Positions 1 to 49,036 are shown, numbered from the stretch's first letter. The stretch: 64,000 nt of DNA from Candidatus Borrarchaeum weybense (GCA_019057385.1 JAHQJS010000006.1:517038-581037), one strand, 5' to 3'. Notes: generated from the sequence alone by a model not told the origin. Translations and numbers: made by a program.

Positions 1-3000
1 CAGTTGTTTTCTTGGTAGTTGTCGTTTCTTTATCTTTAGTTGATACGAAATTTTCGATTTTCTTTGTTGTCGTTTCTTTTGCTTTTCTTCCTTTTTTCTT
101 TTTTAGGGCGAGTTCTTCATCTTTTATCATTTCATCTATCATATCGTTGATAATTGGCTGAACAACAGTCATTATTTCAAGTTTTTCATCAATTATGTGT
201 TTAACAGTTTTTCTTATTTTTGTTATTGAAAATTCCTTCTTTATTGACTCCTTAGACACTTTTTCGAGTAGTAATCTGATATCTTCCTTTAGAATTGTCT
301 CGATTTTTGCCTTTTCGTTGCTTTTTTCAAACTTAGTTTTGATTTTCTGTTCATATTCTACACTCTTTGATGAGACGTCATCTACTAGGGTATCTTTTAC
401 ACTTGTATTGATATATTCTTTCTTAAGAGCAGATATTTTATTATAAACTGAATTTGGAAGTTTCTTTGCGATCGAATTTAAAATTTTCACATTTTTCTGC
501 TTAACTTGAATTAAAGAGTCATCGACAATTTCTACAACACTTTTTGCACAATCTTTCTGAGATATTTCTGCTACTTGTATGATTAGTTCATTCTTTATAC
601 GTTCTTCAGATTTTGTTGCGCATTCATTCAATTTTTCAGTTTCTATTTTGCCTTTCTTACTCTTTTTAATAGGAGTGATAAACTCGCTTTTAATCAATCT
701 TAATGAAGTAGATACAGCCTTTTGAATAGGCATATCAAACTTTTGAACAACTTCTTTTGTTAATTCTTCTTTTAACTTACCCAGTTTCAATTTATCTGTA
801 GTTATTTCAGTATTAATCATGTTCCTTATCACTTGATTGATGATTGAGTTTTCGTCTATCGAATTTTGCAGTTCTTCGATAAAATCAGCTCTACTTTTTT
901 CATTTATAATATTTTGAACATTTTCTTTGATTTGCACAATCAATGATTGTTCTAGATCCGCTACGATTTCTTTGCTGATGCCTCGCATGAATTTCTTTGT
1001 GAATTCTTTAGCAACCATTTTTGCAGCTTTTTCTTTTAAAGAACTAAGTATCTTATTTTGGAAGTGTTTTTTAACGAAATTGTTGATTTCAGCTCTAGCA
1101 GCATCTTTTAGCATTTTTGGAATGTCATTTTGCAGTTTTTCAGATATTGCAGTATCTTCAGATTTTATTTCCGCTTTGACACGATCCACTGAATTTTTAA
1201 TGGTTTCATCCTTGAGGAGTGTCAATTTTTCTATGAATGCCTCTTTGACTTCCTTTAAAATCGGTCTTTCAGTTTCTTTAAGAACATGCGATTTGAGATC
1301 GTTAAAAGACTTTTCTACGAATTTTTTACTGTTTTTAATCAGATTTTGTTTGAACTTTTCATTAACTTTCTCTACATAGATTTTAGAGGCATGAGTAATC
1401 TCCTCTTTAATAATCTCTCTTAGTATCTTTGTTGAAATCTGCCCCTTTCTTTCAACGCTAAGGGATGCATTTAATTTCCTTTCTATGTTGTTTAAAGATA
1501 TTCTTACACGTTCTAGTGAAATCTCTTTGGAATTTTGAAGAATATCAGGCTTAATTTCTGTAGCTATATTCGCAATTAGATTACCTTTGCCATTATTAAT
1601 GATTGTTTGAATAGTGTAGTTTACTATCTTATCGAGAATGTCTTCTACGTTGATATCTTCATCTAAAGTTTCTGGCAACTTTAGAATGAGACGAATCTGT
1701 TGAAGATCGATGTTTTGTTTAAGAGTGGTAAGTCTCTTTGTTGATAGTTGTGTAATTTGAGCCAGATCTTTATTCGGACATAAAAGAAACTCCTTGAGAT
1801 TGTTAATCTCTGCTTCCTTCAAAGGATCTATTAACTCAAGCGGTAATAGTAAATCAATTGGTGTTTCTGTAACTTCCTTAATGAGTTTTAAGTCTATTTG
1901 ACCTTTTAACTGTTGTATTTCCTCGTCAGTTTTCTTCAAGAGCGATGTTAAACGTTGGTTTGGCCAATAAATAAGCATTTTAATAGTTTTTATTCCATCT
2001 TTTTCTAGAGCTTTCCGATAATCCTTAGTCAGGTGAGGAACGATATGTATTGGGAGTGCCAAAATGTTCTTTGTTTCTTCAAGGACATTCCAGTCAATTT
2101 TTTCTTTGATAATAGCTTCTTCTTCAAGTGGAATCAATTCTTCATACGTTAGAACACCTAATCTGTTTATTCTTTTGATAATTGATTTTATTTCTTTTCT
2201 AGAGGCTGCCATTGTGGAAAGAGGAATGGCATGTTCTCTGATTTCTCGTATTTCTAACGGGTTCAAGAAGTCTTTTATTTGATCTATTTCTTGAATTGAA
2301 AGTTGTGTCAACTCTTGAATTGATAGTCCTGGTGTTTGAAGAAATTGTTTAATTGTAGTAATTTCTGCTTCGTGAAGCGATTCAATGACTTCTGGGAATG
2401 AAAATCTAAGTGCAGGAATGTAAGATAACGGGCAATTAAGTTTTTCCTCTATTATTGAGAAATTTAAATTGAGTTTTATAGAACTGATTGATTCTTTGCT
2501 AAAACCTGAAATTTCAGCTAAATCTTCAGCAGGCCAATAAAGGAAAGCTAATATGGATCTGACTCCCCGTTGAACTAAAGATGCAATTGTTTCTGATGAT
2601 TTTGAGTATAATTCGCCAATAAGTGAGACTGGAGAATTGAGCACAGCTTTAATATTTTGGAGAGTCTTCCATGTATCAGAAGGTAACTCATACATCTCTT
2701 GTGTAGCAATCACAACTTCCTCTAGGGTATCAATGTCTATTTCGCTGAGAATACGTCTAACAGAGGAATCTAGACGCGACAAAGAATCAATGGGAATGCC
2801 TTTTTTGATTCTTAGTTCCTTTTTAAACTGTATTATTCGTTCTGCATCTAAATTAGTCACTTGTGCTAGTTCCTCATTAGGCCAATAAAGAAATTGAAAG
2901 ATCGTAGAAATTCCTCTCTGAACCAATTTTCTTATTGCATGAACAGGAACATTTTCCATAATCATTACTGGAGATTCCAGTATTTCTTTAACCCTACTTA

Positions 3001-6000
3001 TTTTTTCCCAAGGAATGTGCGCCGTGAACTGTTCTTTAGTGAGAATGAAGCATTCATCAATTGTGAAAATTCCAGATTGTTCCAAGGCTTTTAGTTCCTT
3101 TTCATCAAATCCTATACTAAGAGGTATGGAAGTACCATACTTCATTTTTTCTTGCTGAATAGCTAAGGGATCTATCTGAATCTTTTTTCTCAACTGCACA
3201 ATCTCGTTGTCATTTACATTTGTTATTTCTTGTAAACTGCTTAATGGAGAAAGAATGAAGTGAATTATTGTCGTAATCCCATTTTTCAGTAATTTCTCTA
3301 CAATTTCAAGATGCTTTTTTAATGAAGGTAAAATTGTAATTGGAGCATTCAAAGTTTCTCTTATTTTGGAAATTAAATCAAGATCTGCACTATGATGTTC
3401 AAGCGTTTCATGTGGAGTGAAATATGCTTCTTCAATTGTATTAATACCCATTTTTTCGAGTTTCTTGAGGGTATTTGAATCTAGATCCAAAAAATTCAGG
3501 GGAGTTCCTTTTTGCTTATTTGAAAGAATTTCTTGCATATCTATTGAATCTTTTAGCGAATCTATTTCTTTTGAACTAATACCTAATTGTTCTAGTTCAT
3601 TTTTTGGCCAAATTAAAAAGTCAATGACCGAATTTATTCCAAATTGAGAAAGTAGAATCTTAGTATGAGGAATCACCCCTGGAAGTGTACCGATATGGGC
3701 GTCTAGGACATCATATATAGGCTTAATTTCTTTCCTTTTCGGATCATTAAGTACTTTAAGTAGCCTTGTTTTTGAGAAATAGAGATCTTCAATTGAAAAT
3801 ATATTGTGTGATCTAAATTCCTGCATTATTTCTTCACTAAAAAGCGCATCTTCAGATATTAAACTTTCAAAAGGCGTCCCGATATTCTTTTTTATTCGTT
3901 TAATCTTTGTAATTGTAAGTCCGTTTATTTTAGATAATTTCTGTACATCTGTAATAAGGAAATCATAGATAGTTCTAATACCTTCTTCTTCAAGGGCATT
4001 CTTGACATGAGGTTCTATCCACATCATTTCTGAGAGCGACTTTGGATGGGTACTATTAAGTTCCTGTACTACCTTTTCTTTAATGTATTGAATAATATTT
4101 GGAATTAAATCTTTGTCTCTTGCGAGATGGGAGTTTGGGTAAAGTAAAAAGTCAAGCTGTGTTAAGATTTTCCGTTTTGTAAACTTCTTATTGATACTTG
4201 ATGTATACCATTTAAATTGGCTAAGTTGTGGCATCCTTTCTTGAGAAATTTGAGCGATTAAATGTTTTTTAAAACTGTCAATGATTTTTAAAGCTATTCG
4301 ATCGATACTTTCGAGTTCATGGGTTGAGAATATGAGAAATTCAGAAACTGTACTAATCCCCATCTCTCTAAGTGAGTTTTCTATATAGTTATCCATCCAC
4401 TCAATTTCATGTATATCTATTTGATGGTCTTGGAAGATTTCCATTATCTTCTTTTTTTCGTTTTCAATCAAAATATGAATCAATTCAGTAACGAATGATA
4501 AATGTGAACTTGGTGTAATGATTAAATCAAGAATCGTGTGAATCTCCTGGCTTTTAAGCTTATTAAATAATTCTTGATCGATCCATGTGATCTCAGAAAG
4601 AGAAAATGAATAGTTCTTGTTTAGATTCTTAATGACATCCTGTTTTATGAAATTAATAAGTCTGATGTTTATTCCCGGAATTGAGGCAATAGTTTGATTT
4701 GGTGTCACTATAAAATCATAGATTGTCCTCATCCATTTCTTATTAAGATATACTTCAATTTCAGAGTCTACCCACTCTAACTGTGCGATACCAGGCGCAT
4801 CTGGGCTTTGTGAGAATATCTTTAGGTTATCACGTTTTACTTGTTCAACGCGATGTGGTGTAAATTTTTCTATTATCGTCAGTTCTTCAGTGGGTGTAGC
4901 TAAGAATTCAAATGCTGATTTGATTCCTATTTTTGATAATTCTTTTTTAATACCGGGATCAAGCCAGTAACCAACATGCGATATGGGTGAAGAGACTGGA
5001 TGTTTTCGTTCAATAATAAGTGGATACCCTGTCATTAACGCCTTTTCAATTTTCTTAGCTTCACTTGACAAATCAACAGGAAGAGTGGTCGGATCCTCTT
5101 GAGTGATTGCAAATAGATTTTGAAGAGTTATACTTGCCCATTTTTCAAATTGAGATGATCTTTTTCTCTCTCGGCGAGCACGCTCAATTCTTGAAAGAAA
5201 GATCCTTACTTGTCTTCCGAGGGCCTGAAGTGCCTTGGTGATTTCATCCCTAATTTCATCTACATCAGCAATATATTCTTTTGAAGTCTCAGGAAATGGA
5301 ATCTTAGTAGAAACAAGCGATACTGCAATGGCCAGAGGATTGTTATCAATATTTATTTTGTACGTTTTCCACTCGACTTCTTTATGAACTACTTTGGAAA
5401 TTACGTCATTCCCTGCACCAAAAAGTAATGGAATTCGATTTGCATATCGATAAATCGTCACACCACTCTTGAGATTGCCTCCGTAAGCAAGGGCAGCTTC
5501 AACAATAAAGGGATGTCCTGCATATGCTGATGCTGGCCGAGTAACTGCAGCAACGAATTCAGGATTGACTCTTTCCTTAAGTCCCTTTTCCAGATTTTCT
5601 GCTGTAAGTGGTGAGAGAGCTACCCCTTCAGGGCTTAAGAAAGTAAATTTTCTTTCAGTTTTTTCTTTTTCTTTTTTAATCTTTTTTTCATCAGGCTTTG
5701 ACTGCAAAAATCCGTCATGAATTATCCTTCGGATCTCTTCACTTGTTAGGTCTCTTGGGTTTTTATTAGGATCGACATTAACTAGTGAAAGAAATTGTTC
5801 TGCCTTTTTTTTACTAACACGTTGGAAATGACGCATCAAAAATTCAATCATATTAGTTGTACCTGTAATATGCGTCGCTGCAATTTCACGTTTTAGTTGA
5901 GTTATATCACATCCCCATGGATGTATCTTTGTGAGTTTTGGATAGGGCGGCATTTCATCAATAACACATTCATAAACGATTGGCTCTTCCTGATCTGGAG

Positions 6001-12635: not shown

Positions 12636-13340
12636 CTATACTTCCTTAGAACTGTTATCATCCTCTATTTGAACCTTAAAAATCTTACTAATGAGATTTG
12701 CTCTCGCATTTAGAATGTTCTCATCCCATAGCCTATTAACAAAGAGCTTAAACACATGTTCCATCGCATATGCTACATGTCCTCTTCCAATAGTCCTTCT
12801 TTGAGTGAGAAACATAATACTAACCAGTTCTTGACACAAAGCATCAAGCATTTCCTTAAGGTATTGGTCAGAAACCTCTATAAGTGCCTTTTTAGCCTCT
12901 CCACTTGTGTAGAAACTTGTATTAGCTATATCTGCCATTTTTGCTCTCACATAATTCACAATTGGTGACATAAATACAAGGCGGCGAGTGAGTGCTTCCT
13001 CATCGAATACATCTTCGTCTAATTCTAAACTGAGTTCATCATCAAAATCAATGTCAAAGCTGGATTCCTCTGTTGATGCTTCACCATCCAGAGGTAACTC
13101 ATCGCCTTCTTTCAATTCAGATTCATCAGGTATCTTTTCATCGGTGTGAAATTCTTCATTGTTATTTGAAATTCTATCCACCTCCACTGTTTCAGAAACA
13201 TATTGGATATAAACACCAACATTTATCAAGTTTCCGCTCTGAAAACTAATTATATCTGGCTTGTAAACGAGTTTTTCAATTAAATCTCGTATATCATGCA
13301 CGTATATATACTTAGAAAAATGAAGAGATGCTATGAGCAC
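12636..13340 (-). CDS. Histone-fold protein with an acidic N-terminal extension (true start probably near 13170)
   Basis: LVFMSPIVNYVR...SGEAKKAL...ELVSIMFLTQRRTIGRGHVAYAM resembles the archaeal histone pattern (P...I...S.eA..AL...A.RKTI...DI..A). It is preceded by a D/E-rich tract, and a GGAGGTG SD-like motif lies near 13180. Confidence 0.6.
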   Translation of the reverse strand: MLIASLHFSKYIYVHDIRDLIEKLVYKPDIISFQSGNLINVGVYIQYVSETVEVDRISNNNEEFHTDEKIPDESELKEGDELPLDGEASTEESSFDIDFDDELSLELDEDVFDEEALTRRLVFMSPIVNYVRAKMADIANTSFYTSGEAKKALIEVSDQYLKEMLDALCQELVSIMFLTQRRTIGRGHVAYAMEHVFKLFVNRLWDENILNARANLISKIFKVQIEDDNSSKEV

Positions 13341-13544
13341 GATAGAGTTCGTATTTTCAATCTTAGACTATGGGCTTCCTCTGATGATTTTAGGGAAACC
13401 CCTTTCGAATCGTGATTCTATTCATCTTTTAAAGCATTTATTATTTCATAAAATAAAAATACACTTCTAAACGAACATATAATTCATTGAAATCGCCTCT
13501 GGAGATTCTTTCCTTGTAAGGTGGAGAGGAAAGAGGCGAAGAAA

Positions 13545-14747
13545 CTAAGATAAAGTGAATAATAACCCTTTTCTATATTTTACCAACTTCACGTTTGTAA
13601 TTGAAACACTTGGATTTTTTCCTTTAGGATTCTGCAACATAACCCGTTTTCCGTAGCAATGGACACCTTTCACTCTATATGTTCTATTTCTAAACTTGAC
13701 AAGGTCATACGGTTGCAATTCGTATCGCTGTCTCCTAATAGACGGCTTAAAACCTTTTCTATTCTTCTGGAGCGAACGATTATTGCGCCTGACTTGAATC
13801 ACCTCATAAGAACGACACCGTTCTTGATTCGTTCCTTCAGCAATAACAAACGCATCATTAATATGCGACTTTTCCAGCCCTAACTTGTTACGCTGACATT
13901 TGGTAACGTATCCGTAAGTATGTTCTGCCCCTAACTGCTCTACTATCCTCCAACGGATGATATTCAGACAGGCAGGTGCTTTAAGAGGTTGCTTTGCCTT
14001 GTGCTGGATGTGAGGATAGCCAAACTCCTCGGCGGTCTGATCTCCTTTCTTTTGATTGCATGTTCTATATGATAACGTCAAATTCGATACTCTGTCAGTT
14101 CCACCTCGGCTCTTAGGGACGATATGCTCGACTTCTAAGGGAACGGTTGTTTTACCACAATAGGCACACTTTCGCTCCCATTTGTCTAACAGATATTCTT
14201 TGACTTCGTAGCCCTGAAGTTCACCCTGCTGATATGCTATTCCTGTAATTTCTGGGTGCTGCATTTTCTGAGTGTCGAAATTGGCTACTTCTACTTTTTT
14301 ATAGCTTATCGGAAGCAGCTTTGCAAGCCTTTCAACTAATCGAATATGTGAGTCATGTCTATGCTGAGTACTGGGGGTTAACCATCCTTCAGGGCGATTT
14401 CGATTATTAAAGCGAGATGGGCGATACCCTAATCTACCTCTACGCGCTCTACGATACATCCGTTTTTCGTCTAGCTTTTTAGAGACATCCTTGCGTAAGG
14501 TCAGCATCCCGCTGATGAGTTCTAACTTATCGGTCTTGGCACTAAACCCGAGTTTCGTATACCCGATGTCCACTCCTAGTTTAATCGGTTGCCTAGTTTC
14601 TCCGGTTGCATAGTTCAACTGAATGGTAAAAGGGCATCGCTGAAAAACTTTTGCCTTTCCTTCCTTTAATAATTTCTTTCCTTTATGTTGTGTGGTAGGC
14701 ATGAGCGGTTGCCCTCTGATGTTTAACACATAGATAGGTACTCTCAA
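13545..14747 (-). CDS. iscB: RNA-guided endonuclease IscB
   Basis: GQPLMPT (PLMP), GVDIG (RuvC-I), RRARRGR bridge helix, EVANFD (RuvC-II), HNH CAYCG..EVEHIVPKSRGG..N, HINDA (RuvC-III). Confidence 0.96.
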   Translation of the reverse strand: MRVPIYVLNIRGQPLMPTTQHKGKKLLKEGKAKVFQRCPFTIQLNYATGETRQPIKLGVDIGYTKLGFSAKTDKLELISGMLTLRKDVSKKLDEKRMYRRARRGRLGYRPSRFNNRNRPEGWLTPSTQHRHDSHIRLVERLAKLLPISYKKVEVANFDTQKMQHPEITGIAYQQGELQGYEVKEYLLDKWERKCAYCGKTTVPLEVEHIVPKSRGGTDRVSNLTLSYRTCNQKKGDQTAEEFGYPHIQHKAKQPLKAPACLNIIRWRIVEQLGAEHTYGYVTKCQRNKLGLEKSHINDAFVIAEGTNQERCRSYEVIQVRRNNRSLQKNRKGFKPSIRRQRYELQPYDLVKFRNRTYRVKGVHCYGKRVMLQNPKGKNPSVSITNVKLVKYRKGLLFTLS

Positions 14748-14754
14748 GTCCTAT

Positions 14755-15020
14755 CTCCTCCTTTAACGTGTGTTAAAGTAGTTTGGTTCTCTTCGCCAAG
14801 GTTATCAGTCAGTACTATACGATGATCACTGAGAGTTTCCTCTCTGTTTAAACCACCATTTACAGAGCAAGGGACTAGAGAAGCATCCCTTGGTGTGTTC
14901 TTGAACTCTCCTGATAACATAGATACCGCCATAAATTATATGGCCTCTCTTAGGCTAATCAACTAATTACTCTTGCTCCTCACGGAACAAGCCCCATCCT
15001 TTTAGGGTGGGGTAATTGAC
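14755..15020 (-). ncRNA. omegaRNA scaffold of IscB
   Basis: About 265 nt upstream of iscB, with typical blocks: GTCAA..CCCC..GGGGCTTG, TAGTTGATTAG, ACACC..GGATGCTTCTCTAGTCCC..GCTCTG, TTAAACAG, AACCTTGGCGAAGAG. The guide would come from the flank at 15021-15040. Confidence 0.85.
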
Positions 15021-40680: not shown

Positions 40681-42060
40681 TCATTTTTTCACAATTATTA
40701 GGTCTCTTGGCTTAGTAACAGAACCCACGAAGAATATATTTTTTCGTATGAATTTCTTCTCTTCCTGAATTTCTCCTTTAATCCAATGACTGGCTAGCAT
40801 CTTGTTAATGACTCTTTTCAGCTGTTCTTCGCTGAAAACATTCGCCATTAATTCATTTAAATAGATCTGATGCTCTTGCTCTCTTGATAATTGCTTAAGA
40901 ATTTTTCTTATAATTTGTTCTTCGTCTGAATTCAAAGAGTACAAAAAATCTTCCAACAACTCTTTTTCGTTTACTACTTCCACGTTTATGCCTTCACGAG
41001 ATAACTGTTGAACAAGATTTCTGACAAAACTTGCGGATACGTTGTATTTCTTTGCTGTTTTAGAGAGCAGATATCGCCCCTTCTTTTTCAGCAGTTGTTC
41101 TTTGATTTTCGGCTTCGCGAAGTATTCCAATGTTCTCGCAATGAGACGCCTGGTTTCTTTTTGTGTGGTTTTACGTTTTAGTTTAGTCAATTTTGAAATG
41201 ATGTCCTTTTCCATATGAGGATAACTCTCGTAAATATCAATAACATACGCATACGCCAGTTCTCTTATTCTTTTTTCTTCGTCTTTAAAAAGCTCAAGAA
41301 TGAGAGGGGCAAATTCATCAACTTTTTCATTTTGCTTCTGAAGGATTATATTGATACAATTCATGGCAGAGAGTCTTACTTCAAAAAATTTCTCATTTAA
41401 TCCACTCTTTACCATGGGGAGGACGTCCTCTTTTAAAATATCTCTTGACCATAGTTGGCAAAATGCCCAAAGCCCTCCTTTTCTCATCCAAAAATCATCG
41501 GATTCCAATGCCTTTTTAAGTAACTTTTGCGCTTCATTTAAGTCCTCATCATTTTGCTGGAGATAATCAACAATTGCTCCAATTGTAAAGTATCGGGTCC
41601 AACTATCTTCGTTCTCCATTTGTTTGGCTAGAAGTTGAAAATCCGAGATACCCTCTTCGTCTTCTTGCATATATTGGGTTCTTAAAAGATCAAAAAACTT
41701 CTCCGCCGCTATATGAGGAAGATATGGGCTTTGAGATCCAATAGTTCCAAGCGCATAGAGAGCATTTTCTTGAACCTCTGCATATTTATCATTTAGGCTG
41801 GTTAAGAGCTTAGGAACCGCTATTTTAACCAGATTAGGCTCTTGTAAACCAATATCTCCCAGAACCCTTGCGATTGTAGCCCTTATGTAACTGTCATCAT
41901 CATTTAGAGTTTCTACGAGTTCTGGTATAACCTCCTTAATTTTAAGAGGATCCTCTTTTCCTATTTTTCCAATAGTCTGGGCAGAAATTCGTCGTTTTCC
42001 AACATCTTCATCAGAAAGTCCACTTAATAGTTCCTCAACATCACTTTTCAATTGATACAA
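40681..42060 (-). CDS. HEAT-repeat protein with a C-terminal PCI/winged-helix-like domain
   Basis: HEAT repeats (LNDDDSYIRATIARVLG); C-terminal LNEL....SEEQLKRVINKMLASHWIKGEI resembles a PCI winged helix. Confidence 0.75.
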   Translation of the reverse strand: MYQLKSDVEELLSGLSDEDVGKRRISAQTIGKIGKEDPLKIKEVIPELVETLNDDDSYIRATIARVLGDIGLQEPNLVKIAVPKLLTSLNDKYAEVQENALYALGTIGSQSPYLPHIAAEKFFDLLRTQYMQEDEEGISDFQLLAKQMENEDSWTRYFTIGAIVDYLQQNDEDLNEAQKLLKKALESDDFWMRKGGLWAFCQLWSRDILKEDVLPMVKSGLNEKFFEVRLSAMNCINIILQKQNEKVDEFAPLILELFKDEEKRIRELAYAYVIDIYESYPHMEKDIISKLTKLKRKTTQKETRRLIARTLEYFAKPKIKEQLLKKKGRYLLSKTAKKYNVSASFVRNLVQQLSREGINVEVVNEKELLEDFLYSLNSDEEQIIRKILKQLSREQEHQIYLNELMANVFSEEQLKRVINKMLASHWIKGEIQEEKKFIRKNIFFVGSVTKPRDLIIVKK

Positions 42061-42187
42061 CGTCCCTTGGCAAATTTTAAGTTTACATCACTCTACTTGA
42101 TAGGTAGATTTTCATTAGATCCTATGGTAAGTTAATTAGATTTACTTTTTTCTATTAAATTTAGTAAGTTATTCTTAAGGTGATAGG

Positions 42188-42430
42188 ATGAATATTTCAC
42201 GGGAGAAGATTCCGCAATTTCAGGAAAGGGAAGGTATTGCTCAAGACTTGAGCAAAGCATGGGAAAATCATTCAGATTTTTTGAAAAGATTCCCTTTTAG
42301 AAAAAATCCTGATTCCACCTAAGAATGACTAAAGAGAAACTTGGGAAGACAGGCTCTGAAGATTTTTTCTTTTATTGGCTGCAATACCCCCTAGGTTGGC
42401 TTGGGTTTTATACTGTTTGGGAAGCTCTGT
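42188..42430 (+). pseudogene. Broken gene remnant, possibly a McrB-like N-terminal domain
   Basis: GGTGA SD and ATG, then ..FLKRFPFRKNPD, stop/frameshift, TKEKL..GSEDFF, frameshift, YWLQY. Resembles the F...FP....lt.e....dsF.YWlE pattern from memory. Confidence 0.3.
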
Positions 42431-42475
42431 GAAAGATAATAGCGGGAAAAAGATTTTAGCGAAGATAAAGAAGAG

Positions 42476-43972
42476 TTAAATAACCTTTCTTAACCAATTG
42501 GTGAGATTGAAGAAATCTACGGCGTGCACATTCTTGTATTTTCTCACTAATGGGGTATATTTTGTCACGACACATGCAAATACTTTATATGTTTCTCTTT
42601 CACCGCTTATTGTGAGTTCTTCCTTAAATTTTTCAAAGTTATTTTTGAAAAATTCAACACGTTCTCGTTGTTTCAACATTTGATCTAGAAGTCTCTTTTT
42701 TTGCAGCAATTCCTGTTCTATGAGTGTCCATCCAGATATCGAAGATGGTGAAATGTCCCAATATTTTGCTTCCGCTAATACAATAGTCTTTTCGGTTTCT
42801 TTTATGGCAATTGCATCATACTCAGGACTATCTCTCGAAATTTTAACTGGTTTATCGGGAACGCTGTATCCATTTTCCGATAATAACTCTCTTACACGTT
42901 GCTCAAAGACCTTGGCGGCTTGTTGCTTTTTTTGTGCTATTGACTGTGAGGGATCATTCACATTTTCATCGTTTAAACCAAGAAGATGAAACAAAAGAAA
43001 TAGTATTGTACTAGGGTCGCAAAGGATTTGGTCTCCTTCTATTAGAACCAAAATTGGTGCCCTCGCTTTTGAAACCATATATTCGCGTAAAAAGGCATCT
43101 ATATCTAATCCATATTTTTCATAATTGAGTAAGTAACTTTTTATTCCATTTACCGTCCATTTACTCCTATTGGAAAAAAATAATCCAAGTAGCGCCGCTA
43201 TGTCTGCACTTGAAACATCATATTTAACTTGCTGTGCTGTGCGGTAATATAGACACAAAGCATATTTCGTGCGTATAATGTGTTCAAAAAATTGAACGAA
43301 GTATTTTTCAAGTTCCATGCCTTGTTCCAATTGAATATCCTCTCTTACTTGTTGATCTATTTCTGAATATCTAAATACGTCCTCAGTTATTCCAATAGAA
43401 CTACTAATAAGCCCCCAATTTCTAAGCATTAAAAATAAAGCATCCAAATACTTTATTTGAAAAACCTCATTGTCTGAGACCCTGATTAAACGACGTCTGT
43501 TTTCAAGGTCATCGATAAAATTTAATCTAGTCACATAATAGCTATATTCTTGTAATAAAGACTCAAAGTCTGGATTGGTATTGGAACGACCAATCGATGG
43601 AGAAATTGAATTGAGATCTATAAACATTTGATTTGTTGTGAAGAACTCATTTAGTATCATTCCTTTTCCTGCAAAAAATCCATCTATGAGTTTTTTACGA
43701 TAGGAAAAAATAAGAGTTTTCAGTATAGTCTCATTAAATTCTTTCATTTTGGCTAACAGGCTATTTTTCAGTTCATCGATTTCATTTTTTAACTTTTGTG
43801 CTCCTTTAACATTATAAAATTCAATTCCAACAGGAAAAAGGATGCATTTCGGATTTACACAAATTTCTTCTTTTGTGTTGAGTCCTAAATACAGTAAATG
43901 TTTACATTCTGTACATAGATAATCCGATATGGTCTCCATGATTTTATGCCATGGGTAAAACTCACTCACCAT
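42476..43972 (-). CDS. Hypothetical protein with an N-terminal Zn finger and a C-terminal PD-(D/E)xK (NERD-like) nuclease
   Basis: CTEC..CVNPKC; FEQRVRELL..GY...EYDAIAI...IVLAEAK. Confidence 0.75.
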   Translation of the reverse strand: MVSEFYPWHKIMETISDYLCTECKHLLYLGLNTKEEICVNPKCILFPVGIEFYNVKGAQKLKNEIDELKNSLLAKMKEFNETILKTLIFSYRKKLIDGFFAGKGMILNEFFTTNQMFIDLNSISPSIGRSNTNPDFESLLQEYSYYVTRLNFIDDLENRRRLIRVSDNEVFQIKYLDALFLMLRNWGLISSSIGITEDVFRYSEIDQQVREDIQLEQGMELEKYFVQFFEHIIRTKYALCLYYRTAQQVKYDVSSADIAALLGLFFSNRSKWTVNGIKSYLLNYEKYGLDIDAFLREYMVSKARAPILVLIEGDQILCDPSTILFLLFHLLGLNDENVNDPSQSIAQKKQQAAKVFEQRVRELLSENGYSVPDKPVKISRDSPEYDAIAIKETEKTIVLAEAKYWDISPSSISGWTLIEQELLQKKRLLDQMLKQRERVEFFKNNFEKFKEELTISGERETYKVFACVVTKYTPLVRKYKNVHAVDFFNLTNWLRKVI

Positions 43973-44397
43973 ATTTCAACATCCAAATTAAAAATGATAA
44001 TCTAGATTTCCATTAGTATATTCGTAATTGACTAGTAATATCGGTTTTTTTGTTTTCATTTTTTACTTGAAAGATTGAGTTTCATGTATAGACGATTGAT
44101 AACACTATAGAACAAAGATTTGTCGATTAATCTCGCTGCCTTTAAAGATCTTTATGAAACTATTTTTTTCTTGTTTCTTCTTCTGTATCTGACCATATCT
44201 TCCTAAAACATTCAAACGGATGGATAAAGGTTTTATGCACTTTTTTGTCATAGTTATCATTAGATTGAGGAGCAATAAAAGTAAAACAGCATTCCAGAAA
44301 AACGAGGATCAAAACAATGAGTAATCACCTAATGAACGTAAGCAAAAACTTGAACAATGAAAAACGGAAGAAATCCGGATAATTTTGTAAAATAATG

Positions 44398-45105
44398 CTA
44401 GATCTTTACAATATTCATCTCTCTTTTTCTATATATTTTCTTTTTCTCATATCTAAAAAACATTCCATATATAATAGAGCTTGCCACCAAAATAACAACT
44501 ATGATGATAATCATCCATAGAAGTGAAACGTAATCTGAGATCCACAACCAGTAAAGACTAAGAAACACCAAGATCAAACCCCAGAAGCGTCGTCTAAACC
44601 AAATCAAAAACCGTATTTTATGGCGTTCGATGTATGATTTTAAGAAGGTATGAATGCCGAACGTACTATCTCTTTGATAACTACTCATTTTGGTAATCCT
44701 TTTTTCAATACCTCGAACACGGGCATAAGCTATATCATCAAGACGCTTTGTTGTATAATGCACACCGAATAACCATATGGAATAAAGAAATATCGAGGCC
44801 AAAGCATCAACTAAATGAGTCTTATTCCCATTGCTTTTGATTAAAATTTCACTGAAAGTTTCACTAACAATAAGAAAGGCGGCAGCTACTAATATCGTTC
44901 CTACTACAAGCGTGATATTCTCCCTGCGCTCTATTTCATTATTTGTGCATTCATAATCTTTCAATAATACATCGATTTCGATATTCTGATTTTCATTAAA
45001 ATGATACTCGAATAAACTTGGTTTTCCAAACTCAAGTATCACGATATAGATCATTGAAAGAACAAATCCAATTACTGAAATCACAAATGTCCCCAAATCA
45101 GACAC
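44398..45105 (-). CDS. Multi-pass membrane protein of unknown function
   Basis: About 5 hydrophobic segments; Y.....EI.RR..TM..TM..R...IEK layout. Confidence 0.65.
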   Translation of the reverse strand: MSDLGTFVISVIGFVLSMIYIVILEFGKPSLFEYHFNENQNIEIDVLLKDYECTNNEIERRENITLVVGTILVAAAFLIVSETFSEILIKSNGNKTHLVDALASIFLYSIWLFGVHYTTKRLDDIAYARVRGIEKRITKMSSYQRDSTFGIHTFLKSYIERHKIRFLIWFRRRFWGLILVFLSLYWLWISDYVSLLWMIIIIVVILVASSIIYGMFFRYEKKKIYRKREMNIVKI

Positions 45106-45182
45106 AGAATATCCCCCAGCCTATTAATGGCATTTGTCTAAAATAAGTCTGCTTGTAATAAAAAAAACTTAGTATCTTTTAA

Positions 45183-45329
45183 TTAGAGTGCGTTTTCTTT
45201 TAACCATAGCCGGATAGCTTCTTCAACGGCTTTACTTAAATAACCTCTTCTAAGACCGAATTTTTTCACTCCTTTTTCACGTAATTGTTGTTCAAGGTCA
45301 TCTGGTATGGACACGCTAATACTTCCCAT
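45183..45329 (-). CDS. Ribbon-helix-helix regulator, divergent from the RAMP operon
   Basis: MGSISVSIPDDLEQQLR....FG..RG.LSKAVEEAI..WL, with a GGTGA SD. Confidence 0.85.
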   Translation of the reverse strand: MGSISVSIPDDLEQQLREKGVKKFGLRRGYLSKAVEEAIRLWLKENAL

Positions 45330-45516
45330 GCTATCACCTTGTGGACCTTTTACAGGTAGCCTTTTCATGTTTCACATATACTTTATACTATAAAACAAAC
45401 ATTCTTTTCCTTTAAAAGTATTATTATTCCACACAAAATATATAAGATAAAAGATATATGTTATAATAGATTTCTGGCAAACTAAGAGATGCTAGAAAAA
45501 TCGCGAGGTTGTAAAC

Positions 45517-46350
45517 ATGAAACAAACAAAAAAACAGATCGTGATTCGTGCCTATACACCCATAGCTAAACCTCTCAATGCGTCTATTCAAAAAAATGCA
45601 ACTATGCTTCTCCTCGGCGAAATTCCCTATGAGAATGGGTCAAAAGTATTCAATACTAAACTTTATTACATCAAAGGTGTACGTGGGATGCTGAGACATG
45701 CTTGTATGAAGTTAGCTCAGGCTTGCGGTATTGAAGTGTGTCATAGCAGTGAAAAAACGGAACTCAAAGACGGAACTAAACTTATTTCTTCGGGTTTTCA
45801 TCCGCTTGGTGCATGCAATCCTCCGTGTATTCTCAGGCGCCTTTTTGGTACCTTCCGCGAAGAGTCCTCGATTTCTGTCTTGGTTGATCCTATCGCCTCT
45901 ATCAGGCATAAAGAATATACTACTGAGGTAGTTGTTCAAAAAGTTCATATCTCCAGCGAGAATAGGATTGCCCTTGCCTATGATCGAACTCCCATTCAAG
46001 ATTTTCGTGAAAGCTATTTCAGTGGTTATTTTAGCTTCTGTATTGACGTAACCACTTTAACTGATGATGAAATCAAGTTTCTCATGGAATCACTGCTCTA
46101 CATTGAGATACTTGGTGGTGGCAAAAACGCGGGTTATGGGCGTGTCAAAATTCTGGATTTCGAAGTCCAGAAGATTGGTATCGTAAGAAACATCGAGAGA
46201 GATAATGGCGCCTACAAAATTAGTGAAAAAACTGAAGTGCAACCAATACTGCTTGAAAACATCGAGGAGTGGAGGACTGCATATATGGGAGAAAATTTGG
46301 CAGCGGTCGAACAAGAACAAATCTCTGCCCTAGTTAGTGATAAAAAATGA
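45517..46350 (+). CDS. Cas7-like RAMP-superfamily protein
   Basis: IKGVRGMLRH, Zn-type C-H..C...C.L.RLFG, thumb ENRI...FRE, and C-terminal glycine-rich loop LGGGKNAGYGRVKI. Confidence 0.85.
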   Translation: MKQTKKQIVIRAYTPIAKPLNASIQKNATMLLLGEIPYENGSKVFNTKLYYIKGVRGMLRHACMKLAQACGIEVCHSSEKTELKDGTKLISSGFHPLGACNPPCILRRLFGTFREESSISVLVDPIASIRHKEYTTEVVVQKVHISSENRIALAYDRTPIQDFRESYFSGYFSFCIDVTTLTDDEIKFLMESLLYIEILGGGKNAGYGRVKILDFEVQKIGIVRNIERDNGAYKISEKTEVQPILLENIEEWRTAYMGENLAAVEQEQISALVSDKK

Positions 46351-47150
46351 CAAAAAACTGGATAAAATTATCGGGTATAACTAAAACACCTGTTGTAAGC
46401 AAGAGAAAACGTTTTTTTCATAAATACGGTGTAATTACTATTAATGGTCGTCCTAGAGCATTTGGTAAACTTACAAAAGGAGAGAAACGCGCTCCTATGA
46501 CATTTAGAGCTAGATATGGAACAGTAGAGTTCGTTGTTCCACAGTCTAAACTTGAGCAAGCATTCACTGTTGATACCATCGGGAGATATACCCATGAAGG
46601 AATGGGGCAAATTGTCTGGAGAAGTGTGAAGCACCTCCAAAAAAAGCCCCTCTACGCTCCAAGAAAAATTAAGATTCGTAAAATGCTTCCCAAACTCTCA
46701 GATGCACAGAAAAATCTACTAAAAGCCTTTCTTTTACATGATTTCGTGCATACCGAAAAGCATCGAAGTAAAATCTACAATGAGATTGACATAATTGATG
46801 AAGAAGTTTACAAATTAGCAAAAAATCATCATAATTACAATTTTGACGAAAGAGAATTGCCTCTCCTCTCTACCCTTCACTATTATGATCGCCTTTCCGC
46901 GATGATTTCTCGAAAATTCAGATGGTCTGCCTCCTCGCGTTATCGTGTGAATGTTCAAAAGGAAATAGATTTCGATATGCTAAAAAGAGAGATAGAATCA
47001 CGCCAATATTCTCTTTGTGCCCTTTATGGTTATGTGTACAAATCTTGTGTACTTAACAAAATCAATGAGGCGCTAAAATTTGGTTTCTCTTCTTTGAAAA
47101 ACCATCTCTTATTAATGGTTAATCTCTATATTGATGACTTTCATAGGTGA
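46347..47150 (+). CDS. Cas5-like RAMP domain fused to an HD-family nuclease domain
   Basis: N-terminal glycine-rich loop IGRYTHEGMGQI; C-terminal LLHDF..H...HH..YDRLSA. ATGA overlap with the cas7-like gene. Confidence 0.75.
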   Translation: MTKNWIKLSGITKTPVVSKRKRFFHKYGVITINGRPRAFGKLTKGEKRAPMTFRARYGTVEFVVPQSKLEQAFTVDTIGRYTHEGMGQIVWRSVKHLQKKPLYAPRKIKIRKMLPKLSDAQKNLLKAFLLHDFVHTEKHRSKIYNEIDIIDEEVYKLAKNHHNYNFDERELPLLSTLHYYDRLSAMISRKFRWSASSRYRVNVQKEIDFDMLKREIESRQYSLCALYGYVYKSCVLNKINEALKFGFSSLKNHLLLMVNLYIDDFHR

Positions 47151-47330
47151 GCCCATATGCTTCAAATCATGATATTGGTATTCCTCTTTGCAGGCAAATA
47201 CACTGGATACAAGGCGGAATGTTCTTCGCACCACGCGGAGAACACGTTCTTGTGCATGAGACTGAACCCGAGAGGTCCCACGCCTCAGATGAAGGGAATG
47301 AATGACAGGCAGAGGACGAGAAAAGTGATA
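47151..47330 (+). ncRNA. Candidate structured RNA directly downstream of the Cas5-HD gene
   Basis: GC-richer than its flanks. 10-bp hairpin TGTTCTTCGC/GCGGAGAACA (47220-47244) extended by ACAAG/CTTGT, a CC-GAGA-GG tetraloop, and an outer stem TCCTCT/AGAGGA (47182-47187 with 47311-47316). Confidence 0.5.
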
Positions 47331-48292
47331 AGCCTTAGTAACTTGTTTATTATCTTATCTGCTGTTCGTGTGTCTTCTGGATTTTCTTCAACGACATCTT
47401 GGTTCAACTCAAATGATGGCAAATTTGCAAGTACAGCTACGATACTTATTATACTTTGTTTTGCGACCCAAAGATTAGATCCTCCACTTAATAAGACTAC
47501 GAGGTTATCATCACAGCTATCTTTAGCTGCTTGTGTGATTATTTTAGCCATTTCAGGAAATGCAGAGGTCGTCAAGTTGAAACCGCCATAATCCGCGTGA
47601 TGGGAGTCATGCCCAAAATTCCACAAAATCATTTCAGGCCCGAATTTTTCGGCAAGGAATGGAGTTAGTTCTTGTAAAACTCTCAGAAAGCCTTTATCAG
47701 AGATATTTGAGGGCAGAGGGATGTCAAATTTATTGGATTTTATTAAATCGTCACTAAATGAATAGCCATCGGAAAAAAAGTTTAGATGTACCACATTTTC
47801 GTCACTCTCAAAAATATTCCGTGTGCCATCTCCTGGATGGGGATCTGTGTCGATTATCATGAATCGTTTGACATTGTAAGTGTTTCTAAGATGTTGAATA
47901 AGTAACGCAGAATTGTTAATGTAGCAAAAACCCCAATATGAATTACGACTTGCATGATGCCCAGCAGTTCCAGTAAAAACAAAGGAATTTTTTACTTTCT
48001 TCGTCCAGACCATTTCTCCTGCCAGTAAAGCTCCTCCCGCTGACAGCCGTGCGGCCTCATAACATTCATCTTCTTTGACTCTTGCAAGATGTTGCGTAGT
48101 ATGTATTTGAAGAATTAATTCTTCTTTTACTCTCTCAGGTGTTTGAATAACTACTCTGTTGTCTCGGTCGTTTTCTTTTAGAAAATCCATTAAAGAATTG
48201 TATGCGGGTGCTAATCTTTCTCGTAAAAAGAGATTTCCATGCGTTGCAAACTTCGGGTGATAAATCAAGCACGTCTGGGGCATTTTAATCAA
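47285..48292 (-). CDS. Histone deacetylase (Rpd3/HDA/AcuC-like Zn amidohydrolase) family protein
   Basis: AGHHA, WGFCYIN, IDTDPHPGDGT, NFGHDSH..D; the usual EGGY appears as SGGS. Confidence 0.88.
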   Translation of the reverse strand: MIKMPQTCLIYHPKFATHGNLFLRERLAPAYNSLMDFLKENDRDNRVVIQTPERVKEELILQIHTTQHLARVKEDECYEAARLSAGGALLAGEMVWTKKVKNSFVFTGTAGHHASRNSYWGFCYINNSALLIQHLRNTYNVKRFMIIDTDPHPGDGTRNIFESDENVVHLNFFSDGYSFSDDLIKSNKFDIPLPSNISDKGFLRVLQELTPFLAEKFGPEMILWNFGHDSHHADYGGFNLTTSAFPEMAKIITQAAKDSCDDNLVVLLSGGSNLWVAKQSIISIVAVLANLPSFELNQDVVEENPEDTRTADKIINKLLRLITFLVLCLSFIPFI

Positions 48293-48349
48293 AATGGTAT
48301 GTAAGGCAACTCCTTCCTAAAAAATCTAACTGCTAGGAGAGGGTGACCT

Positions 48350-49036
48350 CTAATCTTCGATTAGCCTTTTTGTCATCAACATCTTTTCTAAAAGTTTGAT
48401 ATCTAGTTGTCTCGGAATTACTTTATTTTTTATAGCATACACCATCACACTATCATCAATTTCTTGCGCAACCAATACTCCGTAAACTTCATCGACTAAA
48501 ATGTAACTAGAACTCAAATCTACTCGACCTCTTTCTTTTATACTCTTCACATAATCCAGTATTTGATCCACGTCCTCTTTTTTAGGTTTTGTTTTCTTAA
48601 GTTCGATAACAGCCAGTTTGTTCATGGGATCTTGGGCTAAGATATCAATCCTCTTACCTTCTGATAGAGTGACTTGTCGACCCAGCACTCGATAATTCTC
48701 ATAAATAATCCCTGTCAATAAGGTTGGGTATTCTGCTAGAACTTTCTCTATATCTAATTCTGTGAAACCTTCAGTCTTGATATTGAAAGGTTCAAGATTT
48801 ATCTTATAAATTCCTTTCAACTGTTTTGCTCTTTTTATATATTCCCTTGCATGCTCATAACATTCATCGTAGAGTTTACTGTCCACTCCCATTTCCATTA
48901 TTTGAGTCAATGTTTCTGCAGCCTGCAAATAAAGTCTAATAGCTGTTTTTTTGTCGCTTTTTTTGTCGACCTCGATTGCTTTTTCTGCTGTTGATTTTGC
49001 TGTCTTTAACAGCTTTGAGATTTGGTTTTGAGACAT
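48350..49036 (-). CDS. MIT domain fused to a NucS/EndoMS-like PD-(D/E)xK nuclease domain
   Basis: A...A.KAIEVDK....AIRLY..AAE.L...EYIKRAKQLK (MIT); E..IE..L...P...GRQ..L..GKRIDIL..D....VIELK...Q..DY. Confidence 0.82.
   Translation of the reverse strand: MSQNQISKLLKTAKSTAEKAIEVDKKSDKKTAIRLYLQAAETLTQIMEMGVDSKLYDECYEHAREYIKRAKQLKGIYKINLEPFNIKTEGFTELDIEKVLAEYPTLLTGIIYENYRVLGRQVTLSEGKRIDILAQDPMNKLAVIELKKTKPKKEDVDQILDYVKSIKERGRVDLSSSYILVDEVYGVLVAQEIDDSVMVYAIKNKVIPRQLDIKLLEKMLMTKRLIED

Follow-up and report, generated by a model that had tools for sequence, protein, structure and literature searches.

ARAMP (Asgard RAMP) and HRAMP loci were reportedly described by Makarova et al. in 2020 (CRISPR J 3:156). 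As summarized in reviews, ARAMP systems are array-less and type III-derived, usually have a distinct Cas1, and work by an enigmatic mechanism "distinct from those of CRISPR"; ARAMP and HRAMP are treated there as array-less CRISPR derivatives with a mechanism that is perhaps non-programmable (PMC8730458, PMC12669027). The ARAMP summaries in these two sources mention no RNA component, and no description of the element RNA presented below was found among the papers searched, which cover ARAMP through these two summaries.

The stretch of DNA analyzed here, referred to as the window, comprises 64,000 nt of Candidatus Borrarchaeum weybense (GCA_019057385.1 JAHQJS010000006.1:517038-581037, i.e., G000:C6:517038-581037) and has a gene content, including MIT and HEAT domains, consistent with an Asgard host. 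The genome to which it belongs (G000, hereafter the own genome) has 4.18 Mb in 8 contigs. The genes under study are the known ARAMP set: a diverged Cas7 (Pfam RAMPs, 5.2e-07) and a diverged Cas5 with a nuclease domain, of type III affinity, lie at a locus without an array, and Cas1 is present here as a fusion to an SF2 helicase in six of the ~10 units of the own genome. In contrast to ARAMP as summarized, every unit here has one to three structured elements of ~125 nt with guide-like tails, and the unit of the window is minimal, with an RHH-like gene and no Cas1. The features of the locus are as follows.

40681-42060: HEAT-repeat gene, adjoining the HDAC gene in the congeners G004 and G002
42092..47334, no strand: DNA missing from the syntenic site of these two congeners (blastn vs G004 and G002)
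[quoted passage not shown]
45517..46350, plus strand: Cas7-like RAMP gene, 277 aa (Pfam RAMPs, E 5.2e-07)
46347..47150, plus strand: Cas5-like RAMP fused to a Cas10-type HD domain (Cas5-HD), 267 aa, its start overlapping the Cas7 stop
47151..47207, plus strand: linker from the HD stop to the conserved block, kept among closer paralogues only and holding ATG 47157
47208..47328, plus strand: predicted structured scaffold (covariance model 147.8 bits for the window copy), with the 3' end GTGA (47325-28)
47329..47376, plus strand: candidate guide tail of ~48 nt, of which 47329-47334 belong to the insert; from 47335 on it is host DNA antisense to the HDAC 3' end
47285..48292, minus strand: convergent HDAC-family gene (Pfam Hist_deacetyl, 2.5e-51), its last 15 codons inside the element

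In its arrangement the locus resembles OMEGA systems (TnpB reRNA, IscB omegaRNA of IS200/IS605-type elements): a structured scaffold is found at the end of the mobile unit on the strand of the effector gene, directly flanking DNA follows as the would-be guide, and conservation drops sharply at the edge. While OMEGA relies on a single RuvC protein, the effector here would be a Cas7 filament with Cas5-HD, and no match to RuvC or RRXRR was obtained within the ARAMP unit of the window. The element also lacks an Rfam match to any omegaRNA family, the guide would measure ~48 nt with a 6-nt register instead of ~16-20 nt, in most ARAMP loci there are internal scaffold copies with tails that match the locus's own promoter, and no TnpA-type transposase is encoded in the unit. 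An earlier reading of the DNA made from the sequence alone (the sequence-only reading) had called the system OMEGA-like and modeled it on TnpB. The comparison is retained as an analogy of logic and not as membership, given a multi-subunit class 1 effector and no RuvC protein, and the internal copies of most loci, with their fixed self-matching tails, are not what a TnpB-style model would predict. Elsewhere in the same window, an IscB-type protein of 400 aa (13545-14747, minus strand; Pfam RRXRR 2.9e-59, plus HNH) has a HEARO/omegaRNA (RF02033, 134.9 bits; 14781-15020) directly upstream; this IscB system is unrelated to the ARAMP element.

With type III, IV, and I crRNPs the locus shares Cas7-like and Cas5-like proteins, an HD domain of the Cas10 kind, and a 6-nt periodicity in the guide and in guide-target mismatches, the periodicity being a sequence signature only. 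It differs from them in the composition rule at the positions that would be flipped, and from CRISPR arrays in that the "repeat" is an elaborately folded ~125 nt, as opposed to 24-48 nt, and that the one to three copies of a locus have genes or 35-375 nt between them in place of regular spacers. As in CAST homing crRNAs, tracr-L, and CreA (cf. the review PMC8730458), a guide-like sequence beside the effector genes matches a fixed cis site. In ARAMP the matched site is not foreign but lies in the promoter of the same unit or next to the insertion, and whereas the guides of CAST, tracr-L, and CreA lie in a recognizable, if degenerate, CRISPR repeat, none is found in ARAMP.

Gene set and borders of the inserted unit

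The Cas7/Cas5-HD pair is multicopy, with ~10 copies at 64-78% amino acid identity in the own genome and more in relatives; for the Cas7-like protein, 10-11 paralogues at 67-78% and one at 44% amino acid identity are found in the own genome. Pfam gave no match for the 267-aa Cas5-HD protein of the window and a weak HD match in 7 of the 15 members of the RAMP-HD family, a PDB sequence search with a profile of these 15 proteins returned one row at chance level (E 5.3), and Foldseek against the PDB gave none at E<=0.001, the top rows being Cas6 (E 0.05-0.2). The label Cas5-HD is nevertheless reasonable on the strength of fold matches of an AF2 model (profile-based AlphaFold, pLDDT 83), in which the HD domain of Csm1/Cas10 is matched by residues 118-267 (6ifk_A, Z 8.9, rmsd 3.2 for 136 residues; 6mua_A, Z 7.2), and residues 1-105 align with middling scores (Z 5.0-5.8) to Cas5-type RAMPs of types I-A, IV-A, and I-D. 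Residues H131, D132, H139, H161, H162, D181, and H253 are invariant. In the fold search the likeness to Cas10 is limited to the HD domain, and neither Cas6, the Cas10 Palm, nor Cas11 was found among the ORFs of the window's unit or of the larger paralogous units. Tandem Repeats Finder detected no CRISPR array in the 64-kb window, where the unit has a single element copy. Upstream in six of the ~10 own units lies a gene for a 1336-aa protein that joins an SF2 helicase to a Cas1-like domain (Pfam Cas_Cas1, 1e-07); Cas1 is absent from the window's own unit, so that any mobility function would need help in trans.

The proposals that the 3' end of the HDAC gene was the landing place of the module, and that the last HDAC residues are read-through into foreign DNA, are both borne out by empty sites in two congeners, G004 and G002. 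In these genomes the HEAT-repeat gene abuts the HDAC gene, which identifies 42092-47334 of the window as inserted DNA. By blastn, positions 415-1509 of the G004 locus L115 correspond to 41000-42091 of the window and positions 1520-2517 to 47340-48340, and G002 gives the same picture. The HDAC orthologues of G004 and G002, which lack the module, have a different C-terminus and stop three residues after a shared ...KLL(K/R), and the last 15 residues of the window's HDAC are a reverse-complement reading of the element. Homology to the host DNA resumes at 47335-47340, placing the right insertion edge 6 nt 3' of the element, where a boundary had been predicted (near 47325-47335).

The inserted DNA appears to be composite. 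Units of the window type are found elsewhere at G004:C21, at G002:C6, and on two metagenome contigs, and their homology to the window is limited to 45193-47331, which makes the ARAMP unit a discrete segment of ~2.15 kb. Delimited by these comparisons, the ARAMP unit proper is ~45179/45193 to 47334, and the ~3 kb of 42092-45178 are probably a separate insertion beside it. The RHH region (45193-45500) is 87-89% identical among units elsewhere (L008, L111, L112, L139), above both effector genes. Within 42092-45178 there are a 498-aa ORF (42476-43972, minus strand; weak DUF234) and a 235-aa membrane-like ORF (44398-45105, minus strand), and on the other side of the insertion, beside the HDAC gene, 48350-49036 (minus strand) encodes a fusion of MIT with a NucS-type PD-(D/E)xK nuclease (Pfam MIT 2.4e-09, NucS_C 1.6e-08).

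Target duplications vary from unit to unit. A solo element of the own genome (C4:562853) is what an internal deletion has left of a unit, namely the RHH region and the element; its site is empty in G002, G003, and G004, and it is flanked by an A/G-rich duplication of ~13 nt, which is suggestive. Likewise suggestive, 45168-78 of the window matches 47334-44 at 10/11 positions. No clear duplication was detected in four other window-type units, and a general target-site duplication is therefore not claimed; for the units at own C4:1003 and C4:753 no clean empty site was obtained. In a further locus of the own genome (L127, C4:336000-351000; unit C4:339), a helicase-Cas1 ARAMP unit lies within a 10.3-kb insertion in an FtsY/SRP-receptor-type gene (locus positions 2793-3345 and 13295-13420). 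The FtsY-type gene is now headed by a 68%-identical replacement N-terminus, its original N-terminal coding piece having been left behind at the far end of the insertion. The terminal element of L127 is abutted by a 34-nt fragment of the FtsY-type gene with a 28/34 match, whose mismatches are spaced by 3 nt (read as third codon positions) and thus look like synonymous divergence, not like a Cas7 register. A different mobile DNA, probably an insertion sequence, is seen at L021:2786-4533 (own C4:999786-1001533): this multicopy element of ~1.7 kb with a 391-aa ORF is found many times over (77-84% identity) in each of the four congeners and is missing from the syntenic site of G004:C42.

A conserved element with a covarying fold

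The segment between the Cas5-HD stop (47150) and ~47334 has a GC content of 0.46-0.47 vs 0.32-0.37 in its flanks, and the convergent HDAC ORF extends into its 3' part, in agreement with the sequence-only reading. The ~180-nt element that it had postulated from the HD stop onward is shorter when judged by conservation. Alignment of the 330 nt 3' of the HD stop in ten own copies reveals a block that is shared by eight, ends abruptly, and is followed by unrelated sequence; the conserved part amounts to ~125 nt (repeat unit 125-130 nt; 47208-47334 in the window), not the full 180 nt, and 47151-47207 is conserved only among close paralogues. The sequence 3' of the Cas5-HD homologues, singled out beforehand as the place to look, is hence conserved, covarying, and sharply ended. 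The same block sits between the Cas7 and HD genes in other own copies, and the window's unit is devoid of an internal copy because its Cas7 and Cas5-HD genes overlap.

Altogether, 27 copies of the element were detected in the own genome with nhmmer, most of them directly 3' of a Cas7-like or Cas5-HD gene and on the gene strand, as is also the case on metagenome contigs. With a covariance model the element is detected in each of the four congeners and in a single genome from a different family, and in none of 55 other genomes of the phylum; a motif scan returned a further 33 metagenome contigs carrying it, and the model has 95 matches in the collected loci of relatives and metagenomes. Terminal elements are 81% identical at the nucleotide level (84% without P1), vs 69-71% in the genes and 43% over the 60 nt that follow. 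Rfam 15 gave no match on either strand of 47100-47400, neither at gathering scores nor at E<=10.

Between one and three copies are present per locus, tandem copies being separated by 35-375 nt or by whole genes. A regular CRISPR-like array was rejected, the tandem intervals being uneven and several of them containing TATA-like boxes or genes. Since TATA-like boxes separate tandem copies, some copies may be stand-alone RNA genes. Locus L020 has a third gene-plus-element cassette, whose short ORF (own C4:903578-903951) follows the second element, precedes the third, and resembles GIY-YIG by eye. In G005, a genome of the same class and another family, there are 32 model matches on many contigs, mostly solitary and intergenic and many of them near contig ends, and the RAMP-HD gene was found as fragments only with the query used; the G005 elements may be relics, may be served in trans, may be able to act without adjacent effectors, or may reflect an assembly effect.

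As regards structure, the single-sequence fold is no better than that of shuffles (z -0.18 on the plus strand, +0.45 on the minus strand), and folding energy was dropped as support, the window sequence folding at chance level on both strands. RNAalifold applied to 25 own copies gives a hairpin P1, a long-range helix P2, two short inner helices, and a hairpin P3, located in the window as follows.

47220-47244, plus strand: hairpin P1, 9/9 pairs with compensatory changes in 81 distinct sequences
47245-47250 with 47313-47318, plus strand: long-range helix P2, varying mostly from U·G to U·A
47255-57 with 47302-04 and 47262-63 with 47295-96, plus strand: inner pairs
47272-76 with 47282-86, plus strand: hairpin P3, with G-C to A-U changes in 14 sequences

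In the 81 distinct sequences, in an alignment that was fitted to the covariance model, 92.7% of cells pair vs 83.2% in shuffles and 38-57% with the partners slid, 18 of the 25 pairs show double-sided changes, and 0/500 shuffles do as well as the real alignment. Pairing is 96.7% when 18 post-HD copies are aligned independently with MAFFT. Most of the covariation is carried by P1. The conserved U·G pairs are kept on the plus strand only; they would be C·A mismatches on the other strand, so that the functional strand should be the gene strand. Covariation thus supports a fold made of hairpin P1 and a closed multi-helix core, and conservation together with covariation supports the earlier proposal that the module encodes its own scaffold RNA.

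The individual helices drawn by the sequence-only reading fared unevenly. Its long hairpin (47209-47253) keeps the core, P1, in which all nine pairs covary, and loses the outer extension (47209-13 with 47249-53), which never varies informatively, is missing from the copies after Cas7, and competes with the better supported P2. An enclosing stem (47182-87 with 47311-16) was abandoned, with 59.8% of cells pairing and no covariation. A GAGA tetraloop hairpin gives way to P3: many copies have 3-nt insertions that break it, and its G's are part of P3, which covaries. On the evidence of its sequence conservation and covariation, the ~125-nt element is a conserved folded component that travels with mobile array-less ARAMP modules.

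The six-nucleotide register of the tails and the proposed role of the element

Sequences 3' of the element (tails) were compared after anchoring them behind the terminal GTGA-type tetramer, with 59 dereplicated, non-internal tails. Over tail positions 7-48, G occupies 23/413 (5.6%) of the phase positions (7, 13, ..., 43) vs 425/2065 (20.6%) elsewhere (Fisher p 1.4e-15), and over positions 19-48 the counts are 19/295 at phase vs 301/1475 elsewhere (Fisher p 8e-10). The register is gone in positions 49-96 (77/472 at phase vs 432/2360 elsewhere, Fisher p 0.32); at the family level it spans positions 1-48 after the anchor. C is enriched at the phase positions (p 1.6e-07), while the position that follows each of them is enriched in G and depleted in C. 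Codon usage does not explain this pattern, as the period is 6 and not 3. A 6-nt periodicity is expected of Cas7-bound guides, in which every sixth base is flipped out; a base preference at the flipped positions (no G, more C) is not known to be a property of CRISPR spacers.

The tail of the window, with the phase bases T, T, A, T, T, C, T, T, C (47329, 35, 41, 47, 53, 59, 65, 71, 77) and no G, conforms to the register and is uninformative by itself, such a tail having a chance of ~0.13; no second-site target for it was found in the own genome. The tails of internal copies are more telling. Of 54 tail positions, 38-44 agree with a site that lies 90-40 nt ahead of the Cas7 start in the same locus and spans a TATA-like box. 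Their mismatches fall at positions 1, 7, 13, 19, 25, 31, 37, 43, and 49, with 39/56 phase cells mismatched vs 7-13/56 for each of the other phases. A simple promoter duplication would not be expected to diverge in such a phase-locked pattern, whereas a guide-target pair read by Cas7 would. We infer that the register and the phase-locked mismatches are the mark of a Cas7-bound guide, although the register could instead reflect another periodic binder or target-site choice at the DNA level.

The reading favored here, to which a probability of about 0.6 is given, is that the element provides a scaffold RNA and that the DNA next to it is read as the guide, which in the window is antisense to the HDAC 3' end. 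That the guide might come from flanking DNA had been suggested earlier: the position of the element and its sharp edge agree with the suggestion, and use of the flank as such would follow from the 6-nt register, present in tails family-wide. With the unit (RHH-like, Cas7-like, and Cas5-HD genes and element) as a discrete segment inserted at the HDAC 3' end, transcription of the element would follow the gene strand, the Cas7/Cas5-HD transcript probably ending in it, and the RNA would fold into P1 and the closed multi-helix core supported by covariation. It would then act as a handle for the assembly of Cas5-HD and a filament of approximately eight Cas7 subunits, covering the ~48 nt 3' of the scaffold. 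For a terminal copy, the family-wide register suggests that these ~48 nt are adjoining host DNA, so that the putative guide of the window would have the sequence of the plus strand next to the insertion and would be the complement of the final ~45 nt of the HDAC mRNA.

Such a terminal guide may serve homing or retention, host-gene control, or defense. The leading idea is that recognition of the unoccupied site would lead to homing or retention, as in TnpB/IscB, with the helicase-Cas1 acting in the larger units; alternatively, the guide would regulate the neighboring gene or interfere with it. In the internal copies, the tail would be a fixed guide to the unit's own promoter. The unit of the window, which has neither the internal copy nor its target and carries an RHH-like gene instead, would fit an autoregulatory role of the internal guide.

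The same sequences might instead act as DNA, and this we regard as unlikely. The element would be the right-end or recombination site of the mobile unit, recognized by the helicase-Cas1 or another integrase, possibly as folded single-stranded DNA, and the internal, tandem, and solo copies would stem from repeated integration at existing ends or from direct-repeat deletions. Such a role would account for insertion edges that coincide with the 3' end of the element in the two tested cases, for the frequency of tandem and solo copies, and for the solo copy that is a deleted unit flanked by the ~13-nt A/G-rich duplication, and six of the ~10 own units carry the 1336-aa helicase-Cas1. However, the left ends of the units have no repeat of the element, direct or inverted, and target duplications are inconsistent across units. 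Strand-specific U·G pairs and conserved unpaired bases fit an RNA better, and a 6-nt period in the flanks and in tail-promoter mismatches is unexpected from a binder of double-stranded DNA. The DNA-level role and the RNA role do not exclude each other and may coexist.

An equally low rating is given to a cis-regulatory UTR element lacking a guide function, i.e., a 3' processing, stability, or termination module that also offers a Shine-Dalgarno-like GGUGAU leader to the downstream gene. Among 73 unique tails, eight have the ATG of a real host gene, independent in each case, exactly 6 nt past an element ending in GGTGAT (L045, L050, L056, L098, L110, L041, L035, and own C4:1262888); these genes include an acyl-CoA dehydrogenase-like one and a phosphohexomutase-like N-terminus. 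The element appears to supply their ribosome-binding site, and as such genes would need both its transcription and this site, they indirectly indicate that transcripts extend out of the element into the flanking DNA, a point in favor of the scaffold reading too. A UTR role would also agree with TATA-like boxes between tandem copies and with one copy after each gene of a locus, including the GIY-YIG-like cassette at C4:903578-903951. Yet it leaves unexplained the 6-nt register that reaches ~48 nt into unrelated flanks, as well as the phase-locked mismatches between internal tails and Cas7 promoters, and the element of the window faces the 3' end of a convergent gene, with no downstream gene to serve.

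That nucleotide conservation stems from a small protein, read from ATG 47157 with a hydrophobic N-terminus and then a conserved Cys-containing stretch, is highly improbable: the ATG, 7 nt after the HD stop, is kept in 16/18 post-HD copies, the first 17 codons vary in a coding-like manner by codon position (0.28/0.12/0.36), and most copies, those after Cas7 among them, keep the frame open across the element, but the conserved core is flat across codon positions (0.10/0.09/0.10), the changes in P1 are compensatory in RNA and radical in protein, 1-nt indels give different 3' frames and two own copies have stops, the copies after Cas7 lack the hydrophobic start, the ORF of the window (144 aa) continues antisense through the HDAC gene, and Pfam gives no match. 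The segment 47157-47207 and its equivalents in post-HD copies (alignment A4, columns 12-62) show an ATG followed by ~12 hydrophobic codons and may be a leader that precedes the scaffold or the coding sequence of a small membrane peptide; such a short hydrophobic product, encoded ahead of the block, cannot account for the element itself.

Implications for ARAMP units and their mobility

Taken as a scaffold RNA with a guide from the adjoining DNA, the element may be the missing RNA partner of the array-less ARAMP systems. A more far-reaching proposal, which we consider tentative and rather doubtful, is that ARAMP units are RNA-guided mobile elements built from class 1 parts, in which the flank-derived guide promotes homing to the empty allele or retention, and the internal guides repress the promoter. 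The Cas7/Cas5-HD complex, together with the helicase-Cas1 of autonomous units, would then drive homing or retention, and such units would be a class 1 counterpart of TnpB/IscB.

For the locus in the window, the odd C-terminus of the HDAC is explained, and an antisense, effector-bound RNA over the HDAC 3' end is predicted. A defined candidate RNA, a predicted guide length of ~48 nt, and candidate targets are now available for bench tests. If the favored reading is true, ARAMP is RNA-guided after all, by means of a structured RNA with guide-like tails, and a class 1 effector uses a long scaffold with a guide taken from neighboring DNA. This combination is so far known only from the single-protein OMEGA nucleases and their class 2 descendants. 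The finding would then bear on the relation among guide RNAs, Cas1 integrases, and mobile elements, and, should the units also prove to be RNA-guided mobile elements, a possible picture is that of Cas1, RAMPs, and guide RNAs cooperating outside CRISPR arrays.
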